Source: a virus (taxonomy: Duplodnaviria > Heunggongvirae > Uroviricota > Caudoviricetes). From it: a stretch of DNA of 16,387 nucleotides. Location: IMG/VR virus record IMGVR_UViG_2711768071_000023, one strand, 5' to 3'. The position numbers and the translations under genes are program-made. The notes below the pieces were generated by a model. That model was not told the origin of the DNA. It searched no databases and worked only from the letters and a program-made list of their open reading frames with translations. Positions 1 through 16,387 of the stretch are shown piece after piece; the stretch's first letter is position 1, and each line of letters opens with the position of its first letter.

Positions 1-1461
1 ATGAAAAAATTACTGCATCTTTTTTTCCCGCTCTCGCTGCGGGTACGTTTTCTGTTAGCAACGGCAGCAGTAGTATTGGTGCTTTCGCTTGCCTACGGAA
101 TGGTTGCGCTGATCGGTTATAGCGTCAGTTTCGATAAAACCACGTTTCGGCTGTTACGTGGCGAGAGCAATCTGTTCTATACCCTTGCGAAGTGGGAAAA
201 CAATAAGTTGCATGTCGAGTTACCCGAAAATATCGACAAGCAAAGCCCCACGATGACACTAATTTATGATGAGAACGGGCAGCTTTTATGGGCGCAACGT
301 GACGTGCCCTGGCTGATGAAGATGATCCAGCCTGACTGGCTGAAATCGAATGGTTTTCATGAAATTGAAGCGGATGTTAACGATACCAGCCTCTTGCTGA
401 GTGGAGATCATTCGATACAGCAACAGTTGCAGGAAGTGCGGGAAGATGATGACGACGCGGAGATGACCCACTCGGTGGCGGTAAACGTCTACCCGGCAAC
501 ATCGCGGATGCCAAAGTTAACCATTGTGGTGGTGGATACCATTCCGGTGGAGCTAAAAAGTTCCTATATGGTCTGGAGCTGGTTTATCTATGTGCTCTCA
601 GCCAATCTGCTGTTAGTGATCCCGCTGCTGTGGGTCGCCGCCTGGTGGAGTTTACGCCCCATCGAAGCCCTGGCAAAAGAAGTCCGCGAACTGGAAGAAC
701 ATAACCGTGAATTGCTCAATCCAGCCACAACGCGAGAACTGACCAGTCTGGTACGAAACCTGAACCGACTGTTAAAAAGTGAACGCGAACGTTACGACAA
801 ATATCGTACAACGCTCACCGACCTGACCCATAGTCTGAAAACGCCACTGGCGGTGCTGCAAAGTACGCTGCGTTCTCTGCGTAGTGAGAAGATGAGCGTC
901 AGTGATGCTGAGCCGGTAATGCTGGAGCAAATCAGCCGCATTTCACAGCAAATTGGCTACTACCTGCATCGTGCCAGTATGCGCGGCGGGACATTGCTTA
1001 GCCGCGAGCTGCATCCGGTCGCGCCACTGTTGGACAATCTCACCTCGGCGCTGAACAAAGTGTATCAACGCAAAGGGGTCAATATCTCTCTCGATATCTC
1101 GCCAGAAATCAGCTTTGTTGGTGAGCAGAACGATTTTGTCGAAGTGATGGGCAACGTGCTGGATAACGCCTGTAAATATTGCCTCGAGTTTGTCGAAATT
1201 TCTGCAAGGCAAACCGACGAGCATCTCTATATTGTGGTCGAGGATGATGGCCCCGGTATTCCATTAAGCAAGCGAGAGGTCATTTTCGACCGTGGTCAAC
1301 GGGTTGATACTTTACGCCCTGGGCAAGGTGTGGGGCTGGCGGTAGCCCGCGAAATCACCGAGCAATATGAGGGTAAAATCGTCGCCGGAGAGAGCATGCT
1401 GGGCGGTGCGCGGATGGAGGTGATTTTTGGTCGCCAGCATTCTGCGCCGAAAGATGAATAA
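1..1461 (+). CDS. phoQ: Sensor histidine kinase PhoQ (complete)
   Basis: 486-aa ORF, ATG at 1, TAA at 1459-1461. Translation shows an N-terminal TM segment, periplasmic sensor region, second TM, H-box ([13 protein letters not shown]) and HATPase motifs ([15 protein letters not shown]). Near-identical to enterobacterial PhoQ as I recall it. Confidence 0.95.
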
Positions 1462-2387: not shown

Positions 2388-4045
2388 ACCCCATCAAACG
2401 CCGCAAGCCGCTCTTTGTGGCTGTCGCTCATATCAAATGCAAATTCCTCATGCTCTGCCTGGAATGTGCCAAACGCCATCAGCGCCGCAACGCTCGGGTC
2501 TATCTTGTTGGATGATTTTTTCTTGTTCGGCTTGATATTGGCGTTCGCGTCACTCTGCATCACAACATTACTCATTGACCAGGCCAGCACCGGATCGCCA
2601 CGATGCACAATCACCTTCCGGTTAACAAAAACTTCGAACGATTTCGCCGCCGGACTGAAACGAAGGTATGTTTGCGGGAACGGCTCCACCTCAAATCCTG
2701 CCCCCTGTAGCTGCGTCCTCAGGTGCGTGGCGTTCCATGTATCGAAGCCCACCAGCCTGATATTGAAATTCTCTGCATCCGCCATGATGTCATCACGGAT
2801 ACGGTCATAATCAATGCAGTCACCCGGTGTTGTGCGTATCCAGCCCGCCTTTACCCACTGGCGATAGATGGCGCGGTTTTTATTGGCGGGGTTCTGTAGC
2901 TGAAATTCCGGCAGATAGTGACGGGAAACCAGCATAATCTTTTTACCGACCGGAAAGGCATAGCACACGCTGGAAATATCGCTGGTTGATGATAAGTCCA
3001 GCCCCGCGTAGCACTCCTGCCCGTATAAATCCGCCTCCGCGAACGTTCCGGCGCACTCCGCCCATGCACCGTTACCCATCCACGGCGTAGCCCCCTGACA
3101 CCAGATATTGAATCGCTTGGTGAGCATTTCCACCCACTGCGACGGAATACCCCGCGCTTTCTGGATGGTTGAGGCCAGTTTTTCACGATCGACGGAAACA
3201 TCGATATTGGGATTCGCCTTTATCCACATCGCCGGATCGTCAACCTCGCTTTCATCATCCAGCTCGTAAATCAGCACGAACATGGATTCGTTCACCTCTT
3301 CACCATCCAGTATCTGGCAGCAATAGTCATAGTGTTGTTTACAGGCTGAAACAACGTTGCTCCCCGATGTGGTGATGGCAAATAACAGCCCCTCCGGACG
3401 CGCCCCCATTCCCAGTTCAAGCGCGGAATAAACCCCGTTGTCAGGGTGCAGGTGATATTCATCCACAATGGCAAGACTCGGGTTTGTACCTTCAATGGTT
3501 GCCGCTTTTGCTGCCAGTGGCTTTAACAGGCTGTTGGTTTTCGGGTGTATCACCTTGTGTGCCTGAATATTTACCCGCTTTCGTAACGGTCGGGATAAAA
3601 GGCACATCTGACGCGCATCATCAAACACGATCCGCGCCTGATCACGACTCACGGCGGCGGTGTAAATATCCTGCTGCCCGTTTTCCATAACCAGAAACCA
3701 GTTAGCCAGGATAGCGGCGACCGTGGATTTGGCATTTTTTCGCGGCACTTCAATGAATGCGCTGGTGTATTTGCGCCGTCCGGTGGCCTTAACCTTAAAG
3801 CCCAGGATGCACGCAAAGGCGAACTGCTGCCACGGCTCCAGCTCAATGGGGCTACCGCGCATTGCGCCTTTTACGTGCGGACACACCCTGGAAAAGGCAA
3901 TAAACCGCTCCACGACCTCCGGATCGAACGTGTAAAGGGGGTTTTCAAGGTCAGAAAAATACCGTTTAACGGCCTGTTTCAGTCGTTTACAGGCCGTAAT
4001 TTTGCCGTTTTTTACGCCTTCTGCGTACTCATGCCAGGCGGTCAA
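2384..4045 (-). CDS. terL: Phage terminase large subunit (553 aa)
   Basis: Long ORF whose translation has terminase ATPase and nuclease domain character. Lies directly downstream of terS with a 17-nt overlap. The ORF-track start at 4045 is a TTG codon, so the exact start is uncertain. Confidence 0.88.
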   Translation of the reverse strand: MTAWHEYAEGVKNGKITACKRLKQAVKRYFSDLENPLYTFDPEVVERFIAFSRVCPHVKGAMRGSPIELEPWQQFAFACILGFKVKATGRRKYTSAFIEVPRKNAKSTVAAILANWFLVMENGQQDIYTAAVSRDQARIVFDDARQMCLLSRPLRKRVNIQAHKVIHPKTNSLLKPLAAKAATIEGTNPSLAIVDEYHLHPDNGVYSALELGMGARPEGLLFAITTSGSNVVSACKQHYDYCCQILDGEEVNESMFVLIYELDDESEVDDPAMWIKANPNIDVSVDREKLASTIQKARGIPSQWVEMLTKRFNIWCQGATPWMGNGAWAECAGTFAEADLYGQECYAGLDLSSTSDISSVCYAFPVGKKIMLVSRHYLPEFQLQNPANKNRAIYRQWVKAGWIRTTPGDCIDYDRIRDDIMADAENFNIRLVGFDTWNATHLRTQLQGAGFEVEPFPQTYLRFSPAAKSFEVFVNRKVIVHRGDPVLAWSMSNVVMQSDANANIKPNKKKSSNKIDPSVAALMAFGTFQAEHEEFAFDMSDSHKERLAAFDGV

Positions 4046-4385
4046 GCTCGTCCTCTTCCTCTGTTTCCGGTGGATTTCTGCGGCGACTTACCGGGTCAAA
4101 ACCCAGCAAAGAAGCCATTTTGATCATTATTCTTTCAGCGTCAGCCTTTGCGCTCAGGGCGGGGTTTCTGCTCTCGCTGCCCTGACTGTTAACAATGCTG
4201 AACCCGCGCGTGGCAAGGTCTTCGACGGCTTTGCGGTATATGGAGTAGTTAACACAATACAGCTCCAGATTGCTCCAGTCGGCGGGGGTAAGGTCTTCCC
4301 GTCCGGAAAGCTGGCGCGATTTTTCCTTCCACTGCCTGACCGCGATTTCATCCAGGTAAGCGGGGGCTTTTGGTGGTCTTGCCAT
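4029..4385 (-). CDS. terS: Phage terminase small subunit, P27 family (118 aa)
   Basis: Internal ATG at 4385 gives MARPPKAPAYLDE... with the conserved P27-family pattern (W..L...G.LT.AD...LE.YC..Y, C-terminal GF.P.SRRR). The 47 upstream codons of the track ORF look non-coding. Confidence 0.85.
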   Translation of the reverse strand: MARPPKAPAYLDEIAVRQWKEKSRQLSGREDLTPADWSNLELYCVNYSIYRKAVEDLATRGFSIVNSQGSESRNPALSAKADAERIMIKMASLLGFDPVSRRRNPPETEEEDELDRLA

Positions 4386-4673
4386 GTTCTTTTTTCGCCC
4401 AATTATTTTCAAAAAAATTCCCGTGCACAAAAATTTGAGGAGGCGGTCGGTGTCCGGCAGGGACGGTTTCGTCCTGAAAACCACCCCCACCCCCTCTGAC
4501 GGCCTCACCAGCGATTGCGAAAACATTCCATGACCTCGCGGTCACGGTCGGTTAATTGCTTCGCTGTGGTGCGTTCTGTGCGCCCTGTCCTGTTGGCTTT
4601 GTGCCCTGTCTCCTGTGTCTTCCATAAGTCACGCTGCCTTATCAGTCCACGTATCAGCCTGGTTTGCTCCTGT
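4386..4673. other. Candidate cos / terminase-recognition region between HNH and terS
   Basis: 288-bp gap in an otherwise overlapping operon. Contains a GC-rich run CCACCCCCACCCCC (4481-4494), short hairpin 4458-4476, and direct repeats TGTGCGCCCTGTC / TGTGCCCTGTC (4577-4589, 4600-4610). HNH-cos-terS is the usual arrangement in HK97-like cos phages. Confidence 0.35.
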
Positions 4674-8653: not shown

Positions 8654-8902
8654 TTATTGTTTCACTGGCTCCCGCATTCTGCGTCTTATTTTCCACAAAT
8701 ATTCGATCATCGCTTCCACCTGCTCACGGTTGGTTGCGAAAATTTCCCCGGTCAGTGAGCTACGCAGAAAATCATGATGATCCACAAAAAATAACGCATC
8801 GGAAGAAAGCAACCGACGATATTTTTTTGCTGTCGTGGTTTCCAGATCATCAAAACCATGAAGCTTTTTATGTTGCTGAACTTCTTCAAATGTCACTGGC
8901 AT
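8654..8902 (-). CDS. Hypothetical protein (82 aa)
   Basis: ATG at 8902 with strong SD AAGGGGGAT. Overlaps the stop of the ProQ/FinO-like gene by 10 nt. No family recognised. Confidence 0.5.
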   Translation of the reverse strand: MPVTFEEVQQHKKLHGFDDLETTTAKKYRRLLSSDALFFVDHHDFLRSSLTGEIFATNREQVEAMIEYLWKIRRRMREPVKQ

Positions 8903-9423
8903 GTATCCCCCTTTGCTGCCCGGCGCTGGCGCTTGTGCTTCTCATTCAGCACCATCAGCCGTGTTTCTGCCTCCTGCTGTTCCTGTGGTGTCACTTCCCC
9001 ACATGGCTGGCCTTTCAGATCGTAACGTGCGCCACCAGCTATCAGGGCGCGGTAATAGCGCGGAGACTGCGCATAGGATGCCAGCGTCGCACGTAATACC
9101 CCCGGCCCGAATGCCAGCCCCCTGACGGCGATATCCTGCATCAGGTCGTCGAATATCCCCACCTTAAGCGGCTTCGGTGCTTTATGGCTGAATAAGTCAG
9201 GCCACATCTCAGTGAGGCGGTTAACGCGTCGGCGGTTTTTGCGCTGCCTTTTGGTCATATGCTGCCACGGTGTCGCCCCTGTGGGCTTCTGCTGTGCGTT
9301 CTGATTGCCGGGTATCACTTTATGCGCCGATGTGGTTTTATCCTGCTCTTGCGCCGCCTGCGTCGTTTTCTGCGGCGTGCCGTAAATGCCTTTCGGCTTC
9401 CGGTTAATGGTCAGCGTTGTCAT
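8893..9423 (-). CDS. ProQ/FinO-domain RNA-binding protein (176 aa)
   Basis: C-terminal two-thirds aligns by eye with the ProQ N-terminal FinO-like domain (PLKVGIFDDL ... LRATLASYAQSPRYYRALIAGGARYDLKGQPCGEVT vs ProQ PLKIGIFQDL ... [35 protein letters not shown]). SD GGGGAAGG precedes the ATG at 9423. Confidence 0.8.
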   Translation of the reverse strand: MTTLTINRKPKGIYGTPQKTTQAAQEQDKTTSAHKVIPGNQNAQQKPTGATPWQHMTKRQRKNRRRVNRLTEMWPDLFSHKAPKPLKVGIFDDLMQDIAVRGLAFGPGVLRATLASYAQSPRYYRALIAGGARYDLKGQPCGEVTPQEQQEAETRLMVLNEKHKRQRRAAKGDTCQ

Positions 9424-9459: not shown

Positions 9460-9885
9460 TTAAAACGGTATGTTATCCCCGTACGGGTCATCGTGCTGGC
9501 TTGTCTGTTGTTTTGCCCTGTTCAGTGCGTCAGTGGCCTGGCCCTGTTGACCTTTTTTGCCGCCCGGTCGCGCCGTTCGCGCACTGATTACGCTGTCTGC
9601 AATAACCTGCCAGCCCTGCCGCGTTTCCCCGTTCTGGCCTGTCCACTGGCTCACCTGCATGTTACCCGCCACGCTCACCAGTTCGCCTTTGTGGTGTTTT
9701 GCCAGTGCGTCGGCCTGTCTGCCAAACGCCAGGACAGATAACCACATCGTCGCCGTTCCGTCATCTGCCTGGCTGCACGGCAGGGGAACCGCCATACTCG
9801 CCATCGCCATTTGTGTCCCTTTGCTGGTGGTCTTTAACTGCGGGTCAGCCACCAGCCGCCCGTAAGCCGCTATCTGTGCTGTCAT
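9460..9885 (-). CDS. ssb: Single-stranded DNA-binding protein (141 aa)
   Basis: OB-fold pattern comparable to bacterial SSB (GRLVADPQLK..., WLSVLAFGRQADALAKHHKGELVSVAGNMQVSQWTGQNGETR) and an acidic C-terminal tip ...DDPYGDNIPF resembling the SSB DDDIPF tail. ATGA overlap with the upstream ORF. Confidence 0.75.
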   Translation of the reverse strand: MTAQIAAYGRLVADPQLKTTSKGTQMAMASMAVPLPCSQADDGTATMWLSVLAFGRQADALAKHHKGELVSVAGNMQVSQWTGQNGETRQGWQVIADSVISARTARPGGKKGQQGQATDALNRAKQQTSQHDDPYGDNIPF

Positions 9886-10127
9886 GCTGTCTGCTCTCCG
9901 GTTTTAACGTTGATGGTTGTCACCTGTTCCGCTTCGGCAATCTCCCGTTCTGTCAGCGTGGCAAAGTTTGCTGCCGCCGTGGTCATGAATGCGCTTATCA
10001 GTTCGGGATGTGCTTTTGCGTACCCTTCTCCCGCGTTGCGGTCGATGATTTTTATCGCCACCCTCAGCCAGTGTTCTGTCAAATCAAGGGCGTGAGATTG
10101 TGGTTTTTTTGCGTGCTTCGTTGTCAC
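9882..10127 (-). CDS. Hypothetical protein (81 aa), GTG start
   Basis: Track ORF starts at a GTG (10127) preceded by SD GAGGT. Translationally coupled to ssb. No family recognised. Confidence 0.45.
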   Translation of the reverse strand: MTTKHAKKPQSHALDLTEHWLRVAIKIIDRNAGEGYAKAHPELISAFMTTAAANFATLTEREIAEAEQVTTINVKTGEQTA

Positions 10128-10178
10128 AGGCTTTACCTCACAGCAATAAAATAAAATTTTTGCATTTTAACCCTTCAC

Positions 10179-10401
10179 CTGTTCACCTTTTGAGATTTTC
10201 CCTTTTTATTCATAATGTTAAGGGGTGAACAGTTTCACAAAAACTATTCACCAACTGTTCACCACTGTTCACCCTTAAAGCTCAATAAATAATCAAAAAG
10301 GTGAACAGTGAATAGTTTGGTGAACAGTTCACAAATAACTGTTCACCCTATAATGTACTGATATAAAAGATATTTATAACAGGGTGAACAGTGGTGAACA
10401 G
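10179..10401. repeat. Iteron cluster, candidate replication origin
   Basis: Nine perfect copies of GGTGAACAG in both orientations (GGTGAACAG at 10224, 10300, 10319, 10383, 10393; CTGTTCACC at 10179, 10255, 10265, 10339) plus degenerate copies, several pairs at 10-bp phasing. An AT-rich stretch (10350-10380) is embedded. Lies immediately 3' of the primase-helicase gene. Confidence 0.75.
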
Positions 10402-10414
10402 TTATTCCATAAGT

Positions 10415-12229
10415 TTAATTTTTGCTGTCGTCATTTGTGACCGATGCACATGATGGCATACAGTCTTCTGAATCCTCTGTCAGTGTCACATTTGAACGCA
10501 AACCGTGCTTCGTTTTCCGTTTTATATACTCCCTGCCATATTCCGCCATTGCCCCCGGCATATCTTTACCGAAGCGCGTCAGTGTTACAGGTTTACCGAA
10601 TCCGTGTGCCCTCATATATGCCAGATAGGCGTGATAAAGATACCTGCGCGGACTGAACGGAATAATTTCGGCATTACCCACTAACAGACCATCACACATT
10701 ACCGACGACATGAGATAGCCACAGAAGTCCACCAGCGAATCGCCCTCGCGTTTTATCACCAGAGCTTCTTCTGATTTCTGCTGCTCATACAGCAGGCGTT
10801 TAGCTTCGTCCTGGTCAGAAAAACGAGTAAGCAGATGGCGAATCACAACCGCCAGCTCTCCTTCTATTTTTTCTGCCAGCATGGGGTCGCGCTCGTTCTC
10901 CGGTACAACCTCCGAAAAATTGAATATCACCCGACGACGTGAGATCCCCCCGCTGCGGTCACTGAATGACATGGCGTTATTGTTCACCGCCAGCACGACC
11001 GCCTGAATGCGTGTTGAGTAGGGGGCTTTATGCTTCGGGTCGATTGCCACCTTGTCACCGCCTGTAATGGCCTTAATTCCTGCGCCATCACCAGCGTAGC
11101 GGGTCATATCCGGCATGATAATCAGCGAAAAGCCAACCACTAACGCGCGTTCCCTTGCATCTTCCAGCGCCTTCATGCTTGCCGATACTGTGTTGGCCTT
11201 ACCCGCCAGCATAGTGCAAATCTCCGCCATCACGCTTTTACCACTTCCCCCTGGACCTGTTACCTCAATGAATAACTGCCAGTCGTACCGGTTCGCCAGC
11301 ACCATGAATAATGCAGCCAGCACGCGATCCGTCTTGCGGTCATTCTCTGCCACCGAGCAGCGTAACCACTTCCAGAAATTCGGCGCATGTGTTGCCAGCG
11401 TTTCCCCCTCTGCTGGTGGGCTGAAAGGTAATTCACTGGCAATTAACAACCAGTCGTTTTTGTTATGCTCCCGAAAATTACCTGTTCTGGTATCAAATAC
11501 CCCGTTACTGAATCCAATCAGGTTACGGGCTGTATTCCCCATTACAGGCAAACTTAACTTCATGGTATCGACCGCCGATTTAATGGCGTTCTGCGAATAG
11601 CTGATCTCCGCATCAATGAAAATCTGCGCCATAGCACGCTGTAACTCTTTATCCTGAATCGGCTCCCATACAACGCCGTTGTAATGGTGAACAGTGTCAG
11701 AGTCGGCATGAATCGCCAGTTCACCGCCATAATGTGCCAGGAGAACTTCGCCGCGCTGGCTTGCTCCCATCTGGTTAAGCGCCAGTGGTGCGGCGCTGTC
11801 TTCTGTTTTTTTCTTAACAGGAAGCTGAATCACCAGACCATCAGAAAGATTCTGGCGCTCACGGGCCAGATATTCGCGCCAGTTCTGCACCTCCTGACCG
11901 TGCATACCCTCAGGATAAAAATTTGCATCCTGTACGCCTGCCGCCGCCAGCTTCTGACCAATCGCCTTTATCATTACTGGCGCAAGATATCCGGCCCTGA
12001 ATATGCGCACGGATTTTCTGCCTTCCGGCACAATTTGCAGCTTATCCAGTTCGGATAACTGCTGCTCCCCAAGCCACACAGGAGGCTCATTATCTCCGGC
12101 CATACGCGCGTCATGTTCCTGCCATTGTTTTGCGTGTGACCAGGCATCACTACCCGCAAAAATAATGACTTCTGTTTCTTTGTGTTTTATGCCGCGTGAC
12201 TGCTGTTTTACGTTCGGTGCCAGTTTCAT
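10415..12229 (-). CDS. Replication initiator primase-helicase, P4-alpha/D5-like (604 aa)
   Basis: Walker A motif GPGGSGKS and downstream helicase-like region in the C-terminal half. Strong SD AGGGGGT. Position next to the iteron origin matches a pri-rep gene. Confidence 0.85.
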   Translation of the reverse strand: MKLAPNVKQQSRGIKHKETEVIIFAGSDAWSHAKQWQEHDARMAGDNEPPVWLGEQQLSELDKLQIVPEGRKSVRIFRAGYLAPVMIKAIGQKLAAAGVQDANFYPEGMHGQEVQNWREYLARERQNLSDGLVIQLPVKKKTEDSAAPLALNQMGASQRGEVLLAHYGGELAIHADSDTVHHYNGVVWEPIQDKELQRAMAQIFIDAEISYSQNAIKSAVDTMKLSLPVMGNTARNLIGFSNGVFDTRTGNFREHNKNDWLLIASELPFSPPAEGETLATHAPNFWKWLRCSVAENDRKTDRVLAALFMVLANRYDWQLFIEVTGPGGSGKSVMAEICTMLAGKANTVSASMKALEDARERALVVGFSLIIMPDMTRYAGDGAGIKAITGGDKVAIDPKHKAPYSTRIQAVVLAVNNNAMSFSDRSGGISRRRVIFNFSEVVPENERDPMLAEKIEGELAVVIRHLLTRFSDQDEAKRLLYEQQKSEEALVIKREGDSLVDFCGYLMSSVMCDGLLVGNAEIIPFSPRRYLYHAYLAYMRAHGFGKPVTLTRFGKDMPGAMAEYGREYIKRKTKHGLRSNVTLTEDSEDCMPSCASVTNDDSKN

Positions 12230-12519: not shown

Positions 12520-12738
12520 TTACTCCAGAGGCAGCTTTTTAGCGGCGAGCTCAATATCAGATGTCAGAGAAACCTGTGTATTTGCCAGGTCTAACAACAA
12601 AGAAATAAGAATTTCTTCTCTGCTATCGGATTTATCGGTGCTAAGGCTGTTCATCCACATATTGACGACTTCCCTGATTTTTTTCGCAGAGTGCAGGGCT
12701 TCAAATGCCAGGTCTTCAATATCATGTTTATTTCGCAT
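12520..12738 (-). CDS. Hypothetical small acidic protein (72 aa)
   Basis: Internal ATG at 12738 with SD GGGGG. Overlaps the upstream gene stop by 11 nt. Confidence 0.45.
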   Translation of the reverse strand: MRNKHDIEDLAFEALHSAKKIREVVNMWMNSLSTDKSDSREEILISLLLDLANTQVSLTSDIELAAKKLPLE

Positions 12739-12940
12739 AATCGCCCCCGCGTAGCTGGTCTGCACTAACACCCGATTTAGTGAGCATTTCAGAAAATCCC
12801 GCAAGAGTGCTGATAAATTCGTTTTCCATTAAACGGCACTGACATTTAACCCGGCCTTTTTCCAGATACACCAGTACGCGCCCCGTATAATCTGACGGCA
12901 CATTCAGCACTACAGGTAAGTGCGATTCATGATTATGCAT
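12728..12940 (-). CDS. Small protein, paralog B of a tandem pair (70 aa)
   Basis: SD AGGGGGTGA. Shares a motif with the adjacent 69-aa protein (TGRVLVYLEKGRVKC vs TGQLLVNVDKGRVVC). Confidence 0.55.
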   Translation of the reverse strand: MHNHESHLPVVLNVPSDYTGRVLVYLEKGRVKCQCRLMENEFISTLAGFSEMLTKSGVSADQLRGGDYAK

Positions 12941-13142
12941 GTCTCACCCCCTGAATATTCGCATTAATCATTCCGGCACGTTCTGCGAGTTCCTGTAATG
13001 ATTCCCTTGTTGCGACAATGGCTTCATCTGGCAGGTGGTAATTACACACCACGCGACCTTTATCCACATTGACCAGTAGCTGCCCGGTAAATTTCTCACG
13101 AAACTGAACGCGGTTAAGGTCGGTAAGTGACAGGTTAATCAT
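12933..13142 (-). CDS. Small protein, paralog A of a tandem pair (69 aa)
   Basis: SD AGGGGG. Paralogous to 12728-12940. 8-nt overlaps on both sides. Confidence 0.55.
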   Translation of the reverse strand: MINLSLTDLNRVQFREKFTGQLLVNVDKGRVVCNYHLPDEAIVATRESLQELAERAGMINANIQGVRHA

Positions 13143-13338
13143 GGTGTTCCCCCTGGCGAATACGGGCAGCGAATACCATCACGCAGCCATCAGGAGATTG
13201 CTGACGCGCTTCCTGTTCGCTGGTGGCCTCAATGGTAATCACGCGCGGTTGTGCCGTGCTCAGGGCGATAAAACGCCAGATGTATTTATTCAGGTTGTGC
13301 GAGTCCCGCCCTTGCGGGTGTGTGGTATGATTTCTCAT
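13135..13338 (-). CDS. Icd-like small protein (67 aa), first gene of the leftward early operon
   Basis: In-frame ATG at 13338 with SD GAGGT inside the 473-codon track ORF. Translation MRNHTTHPQGR...VITIEATSEQEARQQSPDGCVMVFAARIRQ resembles the Icd-like proteins of P4-type prophages as I recall them. Family assignment is from memory only. Confidence 0.5.
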   Translation of the reverse strand: MRNHTTHPQGRDSHNLNKYIWRFIALSTAQPRVITIEATSEQEARQQSPDGCVMVFAARIRQGEHHD

Positions 13339-13446
13339 AGCTACCTCGATACTCTCGTTATCGTTGGTGGTTAGAAGCCCCGTTACTGCTCCAACAGTGC
13401 GGGGCTTCGTCGTTTCAATTGCTGAATTGCATGTATCAGCACTTGT

Positions 13447-13500
13447 GGTATTCACATTACATTTAGGTGAATACCATTTCAAGTCTTTTTTGGTATTCAC
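13447..13500. promoter_or_regulatory. Operator-like repeats in the divergent control region
   Basis: Perfect inverted repeat GGTATTCAC-N11-GTGAATACC (13447-13475) plus a third direct copy TGGTATTCAC (13491-13500). Lies between the minus-strand Icd-like start (13338) and the plus-strand regulator start (13544). Confidence 0.5.
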
Positions 13501-13543
13501 TTTTGTATTACACTGCATCCCGTTATTAATGGGAGGTGCAAAC

Positions 13544-13849
13544 ATGTCCAGGAGTTCTGTTAACAATAAGTCACAGCAACTGAATGCCAGATTTCCACAT
13601 GAAGTAGTGAGTGGCATTGAGGCATCCCTACAGCCAGGGGAAACTAAAGCGAATTTTATAGTTACGGCTGTACGCGGTGAGATCGCCCGGCGCCAGGCAG
13701 AAGGAAGTGGAGAAAATCCCCTGGTTTCTTCGCTCGATGCACTGGCGCAGGTGGAAAAACTCGGAATCAAAGCCGCCGAGGAGATCGGGCAGCTCGTCAC
13801 TGTCGCACGTGAAGAACTCCAGCGCCGCAAGACCAAAGAACCAGAGTAA
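13544..13849 (+). CDS. Ribbon-helix-helix (Arc/MetJ-type) DNA-binding protein, candidate island repressor (101 aa)
   Basis: ATG at 13544 preceded by GGGAGGTG at 5-nt spacing. N-terminus QQLNARFPHEVVSGIEAS...ANFIVTAVRGEIARRQ fits the RHH beta-strand plus two-helix pattern. One of only two credible plus-strand genes inside the element. Confidence 0.6.
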   Translation: MSRSSVNNKSQQLNARFPHEVVSGIEASLQPGETKANFIVTAVRGEIARRQAEGSGENPLVSSLDALAQVEKLGIKAAEEIGQLVTVAREELQRRKTKEPE

Positions 13850-13906
13850 TCACCATCAGCGCCGTGGTGTAAGGTATTACGGCGCATTGCTATGCAGGAC
13901 AACACA

Positions 13907-14080
13907 ATGACCGATAAAGAATTGACCAAAACATTATCACCGGCACGGAAAAGACGGCGCAGAAAGATAGAGCATGAATCAGAAAGATTCGCGCCATGTG
14001 CTTTTGCCCTTGAGCAATTCCTTAAAGAGTACAGGGAAAAGCGCTCATTGCAGGTATGGCAACGAACTGAACCAGACTGA
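13907..14080 (+). CDS. Possible small basic protein (57 aa)
   Basis: ATG at 13907 (MTDKELTK...) in the same transcriptional direction as the RHH gene. Weak SD. No family recognised. Confidence 0.3.
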   Translation: MTDKELTKTLSPARKRRRRKIEHESERFAPCAFALEQFLKEYREKRSLQVWQRTEPD

Positions 14081-14256
14081 TTGCATTGCCCACCAGCCGC
14101 AAATGTGGCATTGTTGGCAATGCTCATGCGTTGGGGATAACGTGTAGCTTGTGTCGAGGGGCCACCGTAGCGGGTGGCCTTTGTTTTGCCCGTTATTCGG
14201 CAATTGTGGCGCTTCTCCACATGGTTGATATAATCCCACTGCTCAGATTCATTTTT

Positions 14257-14556
14257 TGCGCAGTAGGTTAATTGTTCACAAAGGCGCTCCGGCAACGGGG
14301 CGCTTTTTGTTTTTATTAGTTTGTAGAAACCTGACTCAGAGATAATGCTCATATTCTGATTGCCGTCAGGGGTGTAAGTTAAATTTACTCCCTTTTTATC
14401 ATCAAACATCTGCAACGCTCTGGCGTTAACAATATTGGTTTCACTCCCGCCAGTAAGGCCGGAAATAACCGGAATAATTTCGGCAAAATTTTGCAGATTC
14501 TGTTTTTCAGGACGAACGAAGCCCCGCCCTTGTTCGGGAGAATATCCAGTATTCAT
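14257..14556 (-). other. Possible coding segment: N-terminal ~100 codons of the 473-codon ORF, 3' end unresolved
   Basis: ATG at 14556, 52 bp downstream of alpA. Residues ~60-90 (TPDGNQNMSIISESGFYKLIKTKSAP) resemble the core of Bro-N-type domains. The frame has no stop until 13135 and runs antisense through the RHH gene and the 14284-14314 terminator. Confidence 0.3.
14284..14314 (+). terminator. Intrinsic terminator on the plus strand
   Basis: Stem GCGCTCCG / CGGGGCGC (14284-14291, 14296-14303; 7 Watson-Crick pairs plus 1 GU) with GCAA tetraloop, followed by TTTTTGTTTTT (14304-14314). Confidence 0.6.
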
Positions 14557-14608: not shown

Positions 14609-14797
14609 TTAGTGAACTGCCTCGCAGCTGTCCTTCCATGCCAGAACTTCGGATAAAGACCAGCCAACGGAACGACCGCCCAGCTTACGCCGTGATGGGA
14701 ATTGTCCGGCTTTTTCCAGGCGGTACCGACATGAGCGGCTCAGGCCTGTAAGTTGCTGACATTCTTTTTCACGTATAAAGCGATCTGTGCTTAACAC
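14609..14797 (-). CDS. alpA: AlpA-family transcriptional regulator (62 aa), GTG start
   Basis: Translation MLSTDRFIREKECQQLTGLSRSCRYRLEKAGQFPSRRKLGGRSVGWSLSEVLAWK matches the AlpA family HTH pattern. GTG start at 14797 preceded by AAGGGGGAA. Confidence 0.8.
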   Translation of the reverse strand: MLSTDRFIREKECQQLTGLSRSCRYRLEKAGQFPSRRKLGGRSVGWSLSEVLAWKDSCEAVH

Positions 14798-15157: not shown

Positions 15158-16387
15158 TTATATTTCTCTGGCTATTGGCAATGTGGTTACGTTTTCATGT
15201 GTTCCCGCCAGTATCCCTAACCGCTCCGTCCACATATCCAGCGCGTCACGTTTCGCATCCAGATAACGGGAATGGTTATAGACTCGTTGCATCCCTGGCA
15301 TCTGATGACCTGTAAGCTGCTCCACGACGTGAGGATCCACGCCTAAATCGTTCAGCATCGTTGTAAAGGTGCGCCGGATGTCATGCAGTGACCAGTGAGG
15401 GTGTTTTAGCCTCCTGTGCGCTAATCTGCCGTACTGCGACACGCTTGTTTCCTGTTTCACTTCCCCCAGCAATAAGCCCGTGTGCCTGTTCTGCTCCACC
15501 AGCTGCGTGACGAACGGCAGTATTGCTTCCGGTATGGGCCGGAATATTGCCACCTTCGTTTTGCTGTGTTCTTTCGGCACGGTCCAGAGCATTTCGGTAA
15601 AATCCCACTCGCTGATCTCCGATAACCTCAGTTCTACCGTCCGGCATCCGAAAACAATCAGGAGGCGGATTAGTGCGACGTAGTAAGGGGAAAATATTTT
15701 TTTGTCCAGTGCCTGCAATAATTCGCCAAGTTCTTTGGTGCTTAAGACACGCTCGCTTATATCCGGTTTTTTCCCAACGTCCGCCACACTCATATCATCA
15801 AGAACGTTGCTGATTGCATAGCGCCGCCTCCGGCAGAACTTAAGCGCCTGTTTGCACGTCTGTAGCAAGAATCCGGCAGTAACAGGCGTTCGCTTTGCCA
15901 CCTGGTCAAAACAGGCCAGCCAGTGCCGTAGCTCGCATTTATCCAGCGGCATAGCACCAATGTGCTGTATTACGTGATTATTAAGGCGCTTTTTCAGGGC
16001 GGCATAATCCACGCGGTTTTCCTTTACGTAAGACTCAAGCCAGTAGGTAAGCGCATCGCCAACCGTTACGGGCTTTAACGCTTTCTGTACGGTGTAATTC
16101 ATCTCATGACGTGGATTTTTCCCCTCAGCAAGCCAAGCGCGACACTGTGCCGCTTTTTCCCTGGCAGCTTTCAGACTCAGATCAGGATAATTTCCCAGCT
16201 TAATCCGTTCCGGTCGTGCTCCCCTTCCCGTTCCGGCCCTGTAGGTGAAATACCAGGTTAAAAGGCCGCTGGTTGAATGCCTGACGCTCAGGTTTCCACC
16301 GTCATTAAGAAAGGCTGTTTTTTGGGCGGGTGTGCCGTTGATTTTCCTCAGCTGTGTATCGCTCAGTTTGTTAAGTGCTCTGCTCAT
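15158..16387 (-). CDS. int: Tyrosine integrase, P4 type (409 aa)
   Basis: ATG is the last three bases of the window; stop TAA at 15158-15160. N-terminal arm-binding-type region (LSDTQLRK..., GLLTWYFTYRAG...) and C-terminal catalytic region with HDIRRT and a tyrosine near the C-terminus. Transcribed inward, so its att site lies beyond 16387. Confidence 0.9.
   Translation of the reverse strand: MSRALNKLSDTQLRKINGTPAQKTAFLNDGGNLSVRHSTSGLLTWYFTYRAGTGRGARPERIKLGNYPDLSLKAAREKAAQCRAWLAEGKNPRHEMNYTVQKALKPVTVGDALTYWLESYVKENRVDYAALKKRLNNHVIQHIGAMPLDKCELRHWLACFDQVAKRTPVTAGFLLQTCKQALKFCRRRRYAISNVLDDMSVADVGKKPDISERVLSTKELGELLQALDKKIFSPYYVALIRLLIVFGCRTVELRLSEISEWDFTEMLWTVPKEHSKTKVAIFRPIPEAILPFVTQLVEQNRHTGLLLGEVKQETSVSQYGRLAHRRLKHPHWSLHDIRRTFTTMLNDLGVDPHVVEQLTGHQMPGMQRVYNHSRYLDAKRDALDMWTERLGILAGTHENVTTLPIAREI

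Follow-up and report, generated by a model that had tools for sequence, protein, structure and literature searches.

Two head-to-head iteron modules homologous to ori1 of satellite phage P4 as the probable replication origin of a capsid-forming PICI of Escherichia coli

The iteron cluster located immediately downstream of the rep gene in the DNA analyzed here (the window: the entire 16,387-nucleotide stretch of IMG/VR record IMGVR_UViG_2711768071_000023) is very probably the vegetative replication origin of a capsid-forming PICI (cf-PICI), a satellite integrated beside phoQ. The cluster consists of two modules that resemble ori1 of satellite phage P4 and are arranged head to head, and it is flanked by the gene for an initiator-helicase (Rep) that is homologous to the P4 alpha protein. 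Iteron origins of this kind are already known from PICIs, and in that respect the finding is correct but ordinary: an origin is expected in a PICI, and its identification changes little by itself. Modestly new are the homology to P4, the two-module anatomy, the pairing, without exceptions, of each iteron word with one variant of the binding domain, and a primase domain that is apparently inactive.

Organization of the iteron cluster

The original prediction of an iteron-type origin in this region, which was made from the sequence alone, listed nine perfect copies of a 9-mer in both orientations, and an exact motif count in the window recovered nine copies of GGTGAACAG within 10179-10401, in both orientations and at the same coordinates. 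The two iteron pairs with 10-bp spacing that had been pointed out (10255/10265 and 10383/10393) are both real, and so is the embedded AT-rich block, which had been given as 10350-10380 and spans 10348-10382. In the whole window, GGTGAACAG is present in 10 copies compared to 0.13 expected by chance, and none of 200 dinucleotide-preserving shuffles contained 10 copies; the possibility that the cluster is a chance repeat was rejected. The iteron consensus is longer than the 9-mer, namely the 10-bp GGTGAACAGT, with the trailing T present in 8 of the 9 copies. When one mismatch was allowed, two degenerate iterons were identified in addition to a truncated one, and the origin as a whole has the following components:

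10171-10401: the whole origin; two head-to-head modules containing nine perfect and three degenerate iterons, bounded by the Rep stop codon (10415) on one side and the start of the following ORF (10127) on the other
10179(-), 10224(+), 10255(-), 10265(-), 10300(+), 10319(+), 10339(-), 10383(+), 10393(+): exact copies of GGTGAACAG
10171-10179, minus strand: degenerate iteron GGTGAAGGG
10244-10252, minus strand: degenerate iteron GGTGAATAG
10308-10315, plus strand: truncated iteron GTGAATAG
10300-10401, plus strand: module A, P4-ori1-like (iterons 10300, 10308 (truncated) and 10319; inverted iteron 10339; AT-rich block; iterons 10383 and 10393)
10171-10273, minus strand: module B, same layout (iterons 10265, 10255 and 10244 (degenerate); inverted iteron 10224; AT-rich block; iterons 10179 and 10171 (degenerate))
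10348-10382: AT-rich block of module A, 35 bp, 20% GC, proposed first strand-opening site
10188-10223: AT-rich block of module B, 36 bp, 25% GC

Each module comprises three phased iterons, one inverted iteron, an AT-rich block of 35 or 36 bp and two further iterons. The originally proposed origin is supported, with the refinement that it is built of two inverted modules rather than one. Of all 35-bp duplexes in the window, the AT-rich block of module A has the lowest stability (rank 1 of 16353); that of module B ranks 48 of 16353, and the intergenic region that contains both (10128-10414) is approximately the stretch with the lowest GC content in the window (33% vs a mean of 51%).

The stop codon of the minus-strand gene at 10415-12229 extends to position 10415, and 13 bp lie between it and the end of the first iteron (10401). 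The genes here are all on the minus strand, and therefore the initial description of the cluster as lying immediately 3' of the primase-helicase gene is correct for that strand. A scan of 9800-10800 detected neither a terminator between rep and the iterons nor a sigma-70-like promoter on the minus strand that could serve the downstream genes, so that transcription probably runs across the origin and the repeats may have a regulatory role on the side. No DnaA-box-like 9-mer was found in 10100-10450, an Rfam search of the window yielded no RNA family, and no second iteron cluster or crr-like site is present elsewhere in the complete island.

The tenth copy of GGTGAACAG (11686-11694, plus strand) is isolated and lies within the rep coding sequence, which contains two other lone iteron-like words (10981-10988 and 11718-11725, both on the minus strand). 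The words at 11686 and 10981 were considered as iterons and rejected, the in-gene counts being mostly 0 in the relatives described below; such lone words probably occur by chance because they are not conserved in the relatives.

Homology with ori1 of satellite phage P4

Replication of P4 is independent of DnaA and requires crr (labeled 'cis required region' in GenBank) beside ori1, which in its minimal form is 123 bp long. P4 also has a second origin, ori2, that is located inside the alpha gene and is not known to contain type I iterons.

In the GenBank record of P4 (NC_001609), GGTGAACA is annotated as 'ori type 1 repeat' in both rep_origin and crr. This type I iteron word (TGTTCACC/GGTGAACA) is contained in the 9-mer of the window, and five of the six copies in P4 ori1 have the complete form GGTGAACAG. 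In P4 ori1, three phased iterons are followed, after a gap of ~13 bp, by an inverted iteron and a C; the 35-bp AT-rich block comes next, before a pair of iterons spaced by 10 bp. Modules A and B both align with this sequence, and the distances between inverted iteron, 35-bp AT block and iteron pair are the same; module A aligns to P4 9310-9413, and every column of its AT block (10348-10382) has its equivalent in P4 9361-9395. In a blastn search, window positions 10301-10405 were matched by the ori1 region of E. coli E925, which belongs to a P4-like element (77% identity, E = 2e-9). P4 ori1 and the window have in common the iteron word as well as the order, orientation and spacing of the iterons, and they are served by homologous initiators that combine an SF3 helicase with a winged-helix origin-binding domain. 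According to secondary sources, P4 alpha binds the origin repeats via the winged-helix domain and then unwinds and primes the DNA (PMC4234260, PMC2777425).

The two replicons differ in the placement of these elements. In P4, ori1 is located ~2.3 kb upstream of alpha and crr is separate, whereas in the window the crr position is occupied by both inverted modules and a second site is absent. Similarly to the cluster in the window, P4 crr lies directly 3' of the alpha gene and has type 1 repeats flanking a spacer of ~35 bp; however, crr consists of two direct 120-bp repeats with more degenerate iterons, whereas the modules in the window are inverted and align better with ori1. P4 has a terminator between alpha and crr, unlike the window, where none was seen. 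A bipartite origin with a crr kilobases away was not found: there is a single cluster in the island as well as in the complete, packaged relative vB_KppS-Ant, an induced-prophage genome that contains the same two modules. We infer that the two adjacent inverted modules stand in for the ori1/crr pair of P4. A full-text literature search for the iteron octamer returned primer sequences only.

The initiator-helicase Rep

The gene that precedes the iterons encodes a protein with 49% identity to P4 alpha (aa 137-594), the C-terminal part of which (aa 496-588) matches PDB 1KA8, the solved origin-binding domain of P4 alpha. The following regions can be delineated:

10415-12229, minus strand: Rep, initiator-helicase of 604 aa, annotated as 'DNA primase family protein' (Pfam: D5_N, SF3 helicase domain (DUF5906) and C-terminal Pox_D5 winged-helix)
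11837-12172, minus strand: N-terminal toprim-like domain, aa 20-131
10466-10744, minus strand: coding region of the origin-binding domain, aa 496-588 (PDB 1KA8 match, E = 8.5e-23)
10487-10525, minus strand: stretch co-varying with the iteron word, aa 569-581 (IKRKTKHGLRSNV)

In winged-helix domains, the stretch after the recognition helix is a DNA-contacting beta-hairpin wing (PMC2777425). By analogy, aa 569-581 of Rep are probably this wing; the assignment relies on the winged-helix topology, as the model that we built of this domain alone reached a pLDDT of only 43 and was set aside.

The first ~300 residues of P4 alpha consist of a zinc finger and a toprim primase with the EGYATA motif, and the counterpart of this DnaG-type primase region is absent in Rep. 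In the N-terminal domain of Rep, the zinc finger, the toprim Glu and the DxD motif are all missing, and a Pfam search with aa 1-169 gave no match. Given that the toprim-like N-terminus lacks the canonical acidic residues, the 'primase' label appears doubtful, and the domain looks inactive as judged from its sequence.

Covariation of the iteron word and the binding domain

A search returned ~5600 homologues, and a scan of one genome per species yielded 80 Enterobacterales loci that encode proteins 56-84% identical to the window Rep, and the relatives with intact genes have a repeated 8-mer within 450 bp 3' of the gene. The word GGTGAA(C/T)A is used by 64 loci (references counted); the other iteron words are GGTGGAGA (8 loci), GGTAGACA (5), GCGGACAG (3), GTGGACAG (1) and GGTAGATA (1). 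Among the relatives, the word switches as a set, against a constant background of two modules with fixed orientations and an AT block of ~35 bp. For each word class, there is one variant of the stretch that corresponds to aa 569-581 of the window Rep, with no exceptions among the 85 intact loci, the classes differing in this stretch both by residues and by insertions of 1 or 5 residues.

A matched comparison indicates that this covariation does not simply reflect overall divergence. For the Rep of Escherichia ruysiae (locus L017), which is associated with the iteron GGTAGACA, identity to the window Rep amounts to 90% in the helicase part and drops to 56% in the aa 569-581 stretch, whereas three other relatives (L014, L015 and L018) that have the iteron GGTGAACA show 88-90% identity in the helicase part and 80-88% in this stretch. 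Furthermore, the GGTAGACA class is found on two helicase backgrounds, 87-90% and 73-74% identical to the window, respectively, which suggests that the binding-domain variant and the origin move together. As far as sequence comparison goes, the covariation reflects specific pairing of protein and DNA; it is not proof of replication.

The iterons themselves are under stronger conservation than their surroundings. When 18 distinct origins from several genera, all belonging to the GGTGAACA class, were aligned, identity to the window was 90.7% in iteron columns vs 65.3% in spacer columns (Mann-Whitney p = 2.7e-12), and none of 220 circular shifts of the iteron mask attained the observed difference.

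In one locus (L006, E. coli 2012C-4227; 2501-2851 and 2816-4629), rep is annotated as frameshifted and two iterons are substituted (TGCTCACC and GGATAAACAG); the closest intact relative (L005) does not have these substitutions. The changes resemble relaxed selection on binding sites, and as a single case this is only suggestive.

Relationship to known PICI and SaPI origins

For the PICI EcCICFT073, it has been demonstrated that a plasmid carrying pri and ori replicates and that this ability is lost in the delta-ori and delta-rep versions (Fillol-Salom 2018, PMC6092414). Among the PICI origins compared here, autonomous replication of a rep-ori fragment has been shown only for EcCICFT073, the iterons of which are of another class than those of the window. 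The EcCICFT073 origin, read from the CFT073 genome, has the same two-module layout, with GGTAGAYA iterons (GGTAGACA/GGTAGATA). Similarly to the window, it is located immediately 3' of pri-rep, with two iteron sets around an AT-rich region, has DUF4222, rep, a small ORF and SSB as neighbors, and resides beside phoQ. In contrast, the Rep proteins are 55.5% identical, the iterons are GGTAGACA/GGTAGATA instead of GGTGAACA, the covarying stretch differs, and the island in the window, unlike EcCICFT073, is a capsid-forming PICI. Considering the different iterons and the level of identity between the Rep proteins, the window origin is an allele with a different specificity within a kind of origin that has experimental support.

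In the paper that defined the PICIs of Gram-negative bacteria, the origin organization was described as unique to PICIs, and P4 and PICIs were held to have evolved independently (PMC6092414). In view of the homology to P4 ori1, the statement on uniqueness has to be qualified.

The origins of SaPIs contain 6-12 iterons immediately downstream of rep, with an AT-rich center and flanking iterons in opposite directions, and these iterons are recognized by a winged-helix domain at the C-terminus of an SF3 (or SF6) helicase that loads itself (PMC9371898). However, the SaPI iterons are 5-6 nt long and unrelated in sequence to those of the window; the likeness is one of organization and logic only and does not amount to demonstrated membership. 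The initial comparison with staphylococcal and enterobacterial islands is valid in its enterobacterial part, given the layout of EcCICFT073, whereas the nearest relative is P4 ori1 and not a SaPI origin.

Genomic context of the origin

The principal features of the island outside the rep-ori region are as follows:

1-1461, plus strand: phoQ, host gene
4029-4526: terS
8893-9423, minus strand: ProQ/FinO-domain protein (RNA chaperone family), just downstream of SSB (Pfam, E = 1.2e-23)
9460-9885, minus strand: SSB, island-encoded, two genes downstream of the origin (Pfam SSB, E = 4e-16)
9882-10127, minus strand: conserved 81-aa ORF, phrog_1231, function unassigned, beginning 43 bp after the last (degenerate) iteron
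14609-14797, minus strand: AlpA-family regulator (Pfam Phage_AlpA, E = 3e-18)
15158-16387, minus strand: tyrosine integrase (Pfam)

Searches against Pfam and PHROGs show that rep is followed by the genes for the 81-aa ORF, SSB, ProQ/FinO, capsid, protease, portal, head-tail adaptor, HNH, TerS and TerL, and preceded by those for a DUF4222 protein, AlpA and integrase. In the region from phoQ to int, no tail gene was detected among the ORFs covered by the search, which comprised only part of the small ones. With genes for capsid, protease, portal, adaptor, HNH, TerS and TerL of its own, the island has the gene set of a cf-PICI, and its context is that of a PICI, with int, AlpA and rep all on the minus strand and a location beside phoQ like that of EcCICFT073. 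From the gene content between phoQ and int, it follows that the window contains a complete E. coli capsid-forming PICI. In related islands, PerC-family regulators are found in place of the ProQ/FinO gene.

The 351 bp around the repeats are present at >=90% identity in 594 of 5426 complete E. coli genomes. Some E. coli genomes contain several copies of the origin, in up to 6 places by megablast and up to 11 by blastn, the latter including P4-like ori1 regions, which implies that replicons with the same initiator specificity can share one cell. In strain M7424, an identical origin region belongs to an island that is inserted at tRNA-Pro/yejO and carries different capsid genes; thus, the rep-ori module is shuffled between islands and attachment sites.

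The regulatory region is spanned by a 473-aa ORF (13135-14556, minus strand) of odd, low-complexity composition. This ORF is absent from the RefSeq annotation of the matching strain, in which small genes are placed there (YlcI/YnfO on the opposite strand and a pseudogene), and it is probably not a real gene. Two adjacent small ORFs (12728-12940 and 12933-13142, minus strand) both match phrog_340, and their counterpart in M7424 is annotated as an Icd-like host cell-division inhibitor.

Alternative explanations

The interpretation of the repeats as an initiator-binding origin, which was the core of the original prediction, is supported by the P4 word and layout, the 1KA8-like domain, the covariation in 85 loci, the conservation of the iterons and the AT block of lowest stability. 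The alternative that merits most attention, although we consider it unlikely, is that the cluster, or just one of the modules, enhances replication in cis in a crr-like manner, with Rep pairing it with a start site elsewhere, as is said of P4 alpha with ori1 and crr. Because P4 ori1 needs crr and the cluster occupies the crr position, directly 3' of the alpha homologue, one or both modules could be such an enhancer; P4 crr also has type 1 repeats around a spacer of ~35 bp, and the two modules could correspond to 'ori plus crr' fused in one locus. However, there is no other iteron cluster in the rest of the island or in vB_KppS-Ant; moreover, both modules are closer in sequence to ori1 than to crr, and in EcCICFT073, the rep gene together with this one region suffices for plasmid maintenance (PMC6092414).

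Two roles outside replication are considerably less plausible. That the repeats are mainly a transcriptional operator or roadblock, through which Rep or another island protein controls read-through into the SSB and capsid genes, is very improbable. Such a role would fit the position of the repeats inside a transcription unit, as indicated by the failure to find a terminator or a recognizable downstream promoter, and many iteron initiators also regulate their own expression. However, the layout is that of proven origins (P4 ori1 and EcCICFT073), an AT block of minimal stability between opposed sites has no role in an operator, and in P4 the same module is found in another transcriptional context, upstream of the left operon. 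It is hardly conceivable that the repeats are a packaging (cos/pac) or partition site. The island does encode its own TerS, TerL and HNH, and terminase small subunits often recognize repeats, but terS is ~5.6 kb away from the cluster, the iteron word co-varies with Rep and not with TerS, and in classical PICIs as well as P4-like elements, which have very dissimilar packaging genes or none, the cluster likewise follows rep; as for partition, genes for ParA/ParB are absent from the island.

Proposed mechanism and implications

With the cluster regarded as the vegetative origin, the following sequence of events can be proposed. Induction of the island by a helper phage would lead to the production of the 604-aa Rep from a leftward operon controlled by AlpA. 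The winged-helix domain of Rep is predicted to bind the 10-bp GGTGAACAGT at ~12 sites in the two head-to-head modules homologous to ori1, where oppositely oriented iterons bracket the 35- or 36-bp AT-rich block of each module. Rep oligomers assembled on the iterons would then melt the AT block and self-load as the replicative helicase, and the island SSB would coat the opened strands. Priming probably falls to DnaG of the host, since the acidic residues needed for catalysis are missing from the toprim-like N-terminus of Rep. Replication, presumably of the theta type, would amplify the excised island before packaging.

More broadly, and tentatively, since we consider this the less probable outcome, the PICI/cf-PICI replicon might be a direct relative of the P4 replicon that lost the primase domain and in which a pair of inverted ori1 modules at a single locus took the place of ori1 and the distant crr. 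The Rep of one satellite could then act, by firing or by titration, on the origins of P4-like satellites and other PICIs that share its cell. If so, the shared P4 iteron, with up to 6-11 sites per E. coli chromosome, would entail cross-activation or incompatibility between satellite families, and the short variable stretch of the binding domain would be a natural switch for escape from satellite cross-talk. The relatives have at least six iteron words, each matched by a single variant of a ~12-residue stretch of the binding domain. This amounts to a testable specificity code, from which it might be predicted which satellites cross-activate, and which exclude one another, when they share a cell.

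Distant relatives

Many P4-alpha-like genes of ~830 aa are found in Xenorhabdus and Photorhabdus (loci L043-L092), with five loci from X. ehlersii alone. In all of these loci, GGTGAA(C/T)A iterons directly follow the gene, in an arrangement that is closer to the two-module layout of PICIs than to the two direct crr repeats of P4. In Pasteurella phage Pmp7 (L012, 3256-3400), there is a single module that consists of an inverted repeat, an AT block of ~35 bp and then GTGAAGAG and GTGAACAC, and in Serratia phage Scapp (L013, 2935-3250), which is a true phage, a different repeat, TGAAAAGTGCAATTT, follows an alpha-like gene. Judging from their sequences, these distant relatives, Pmp7 and Scapp, appear to retain the principle.
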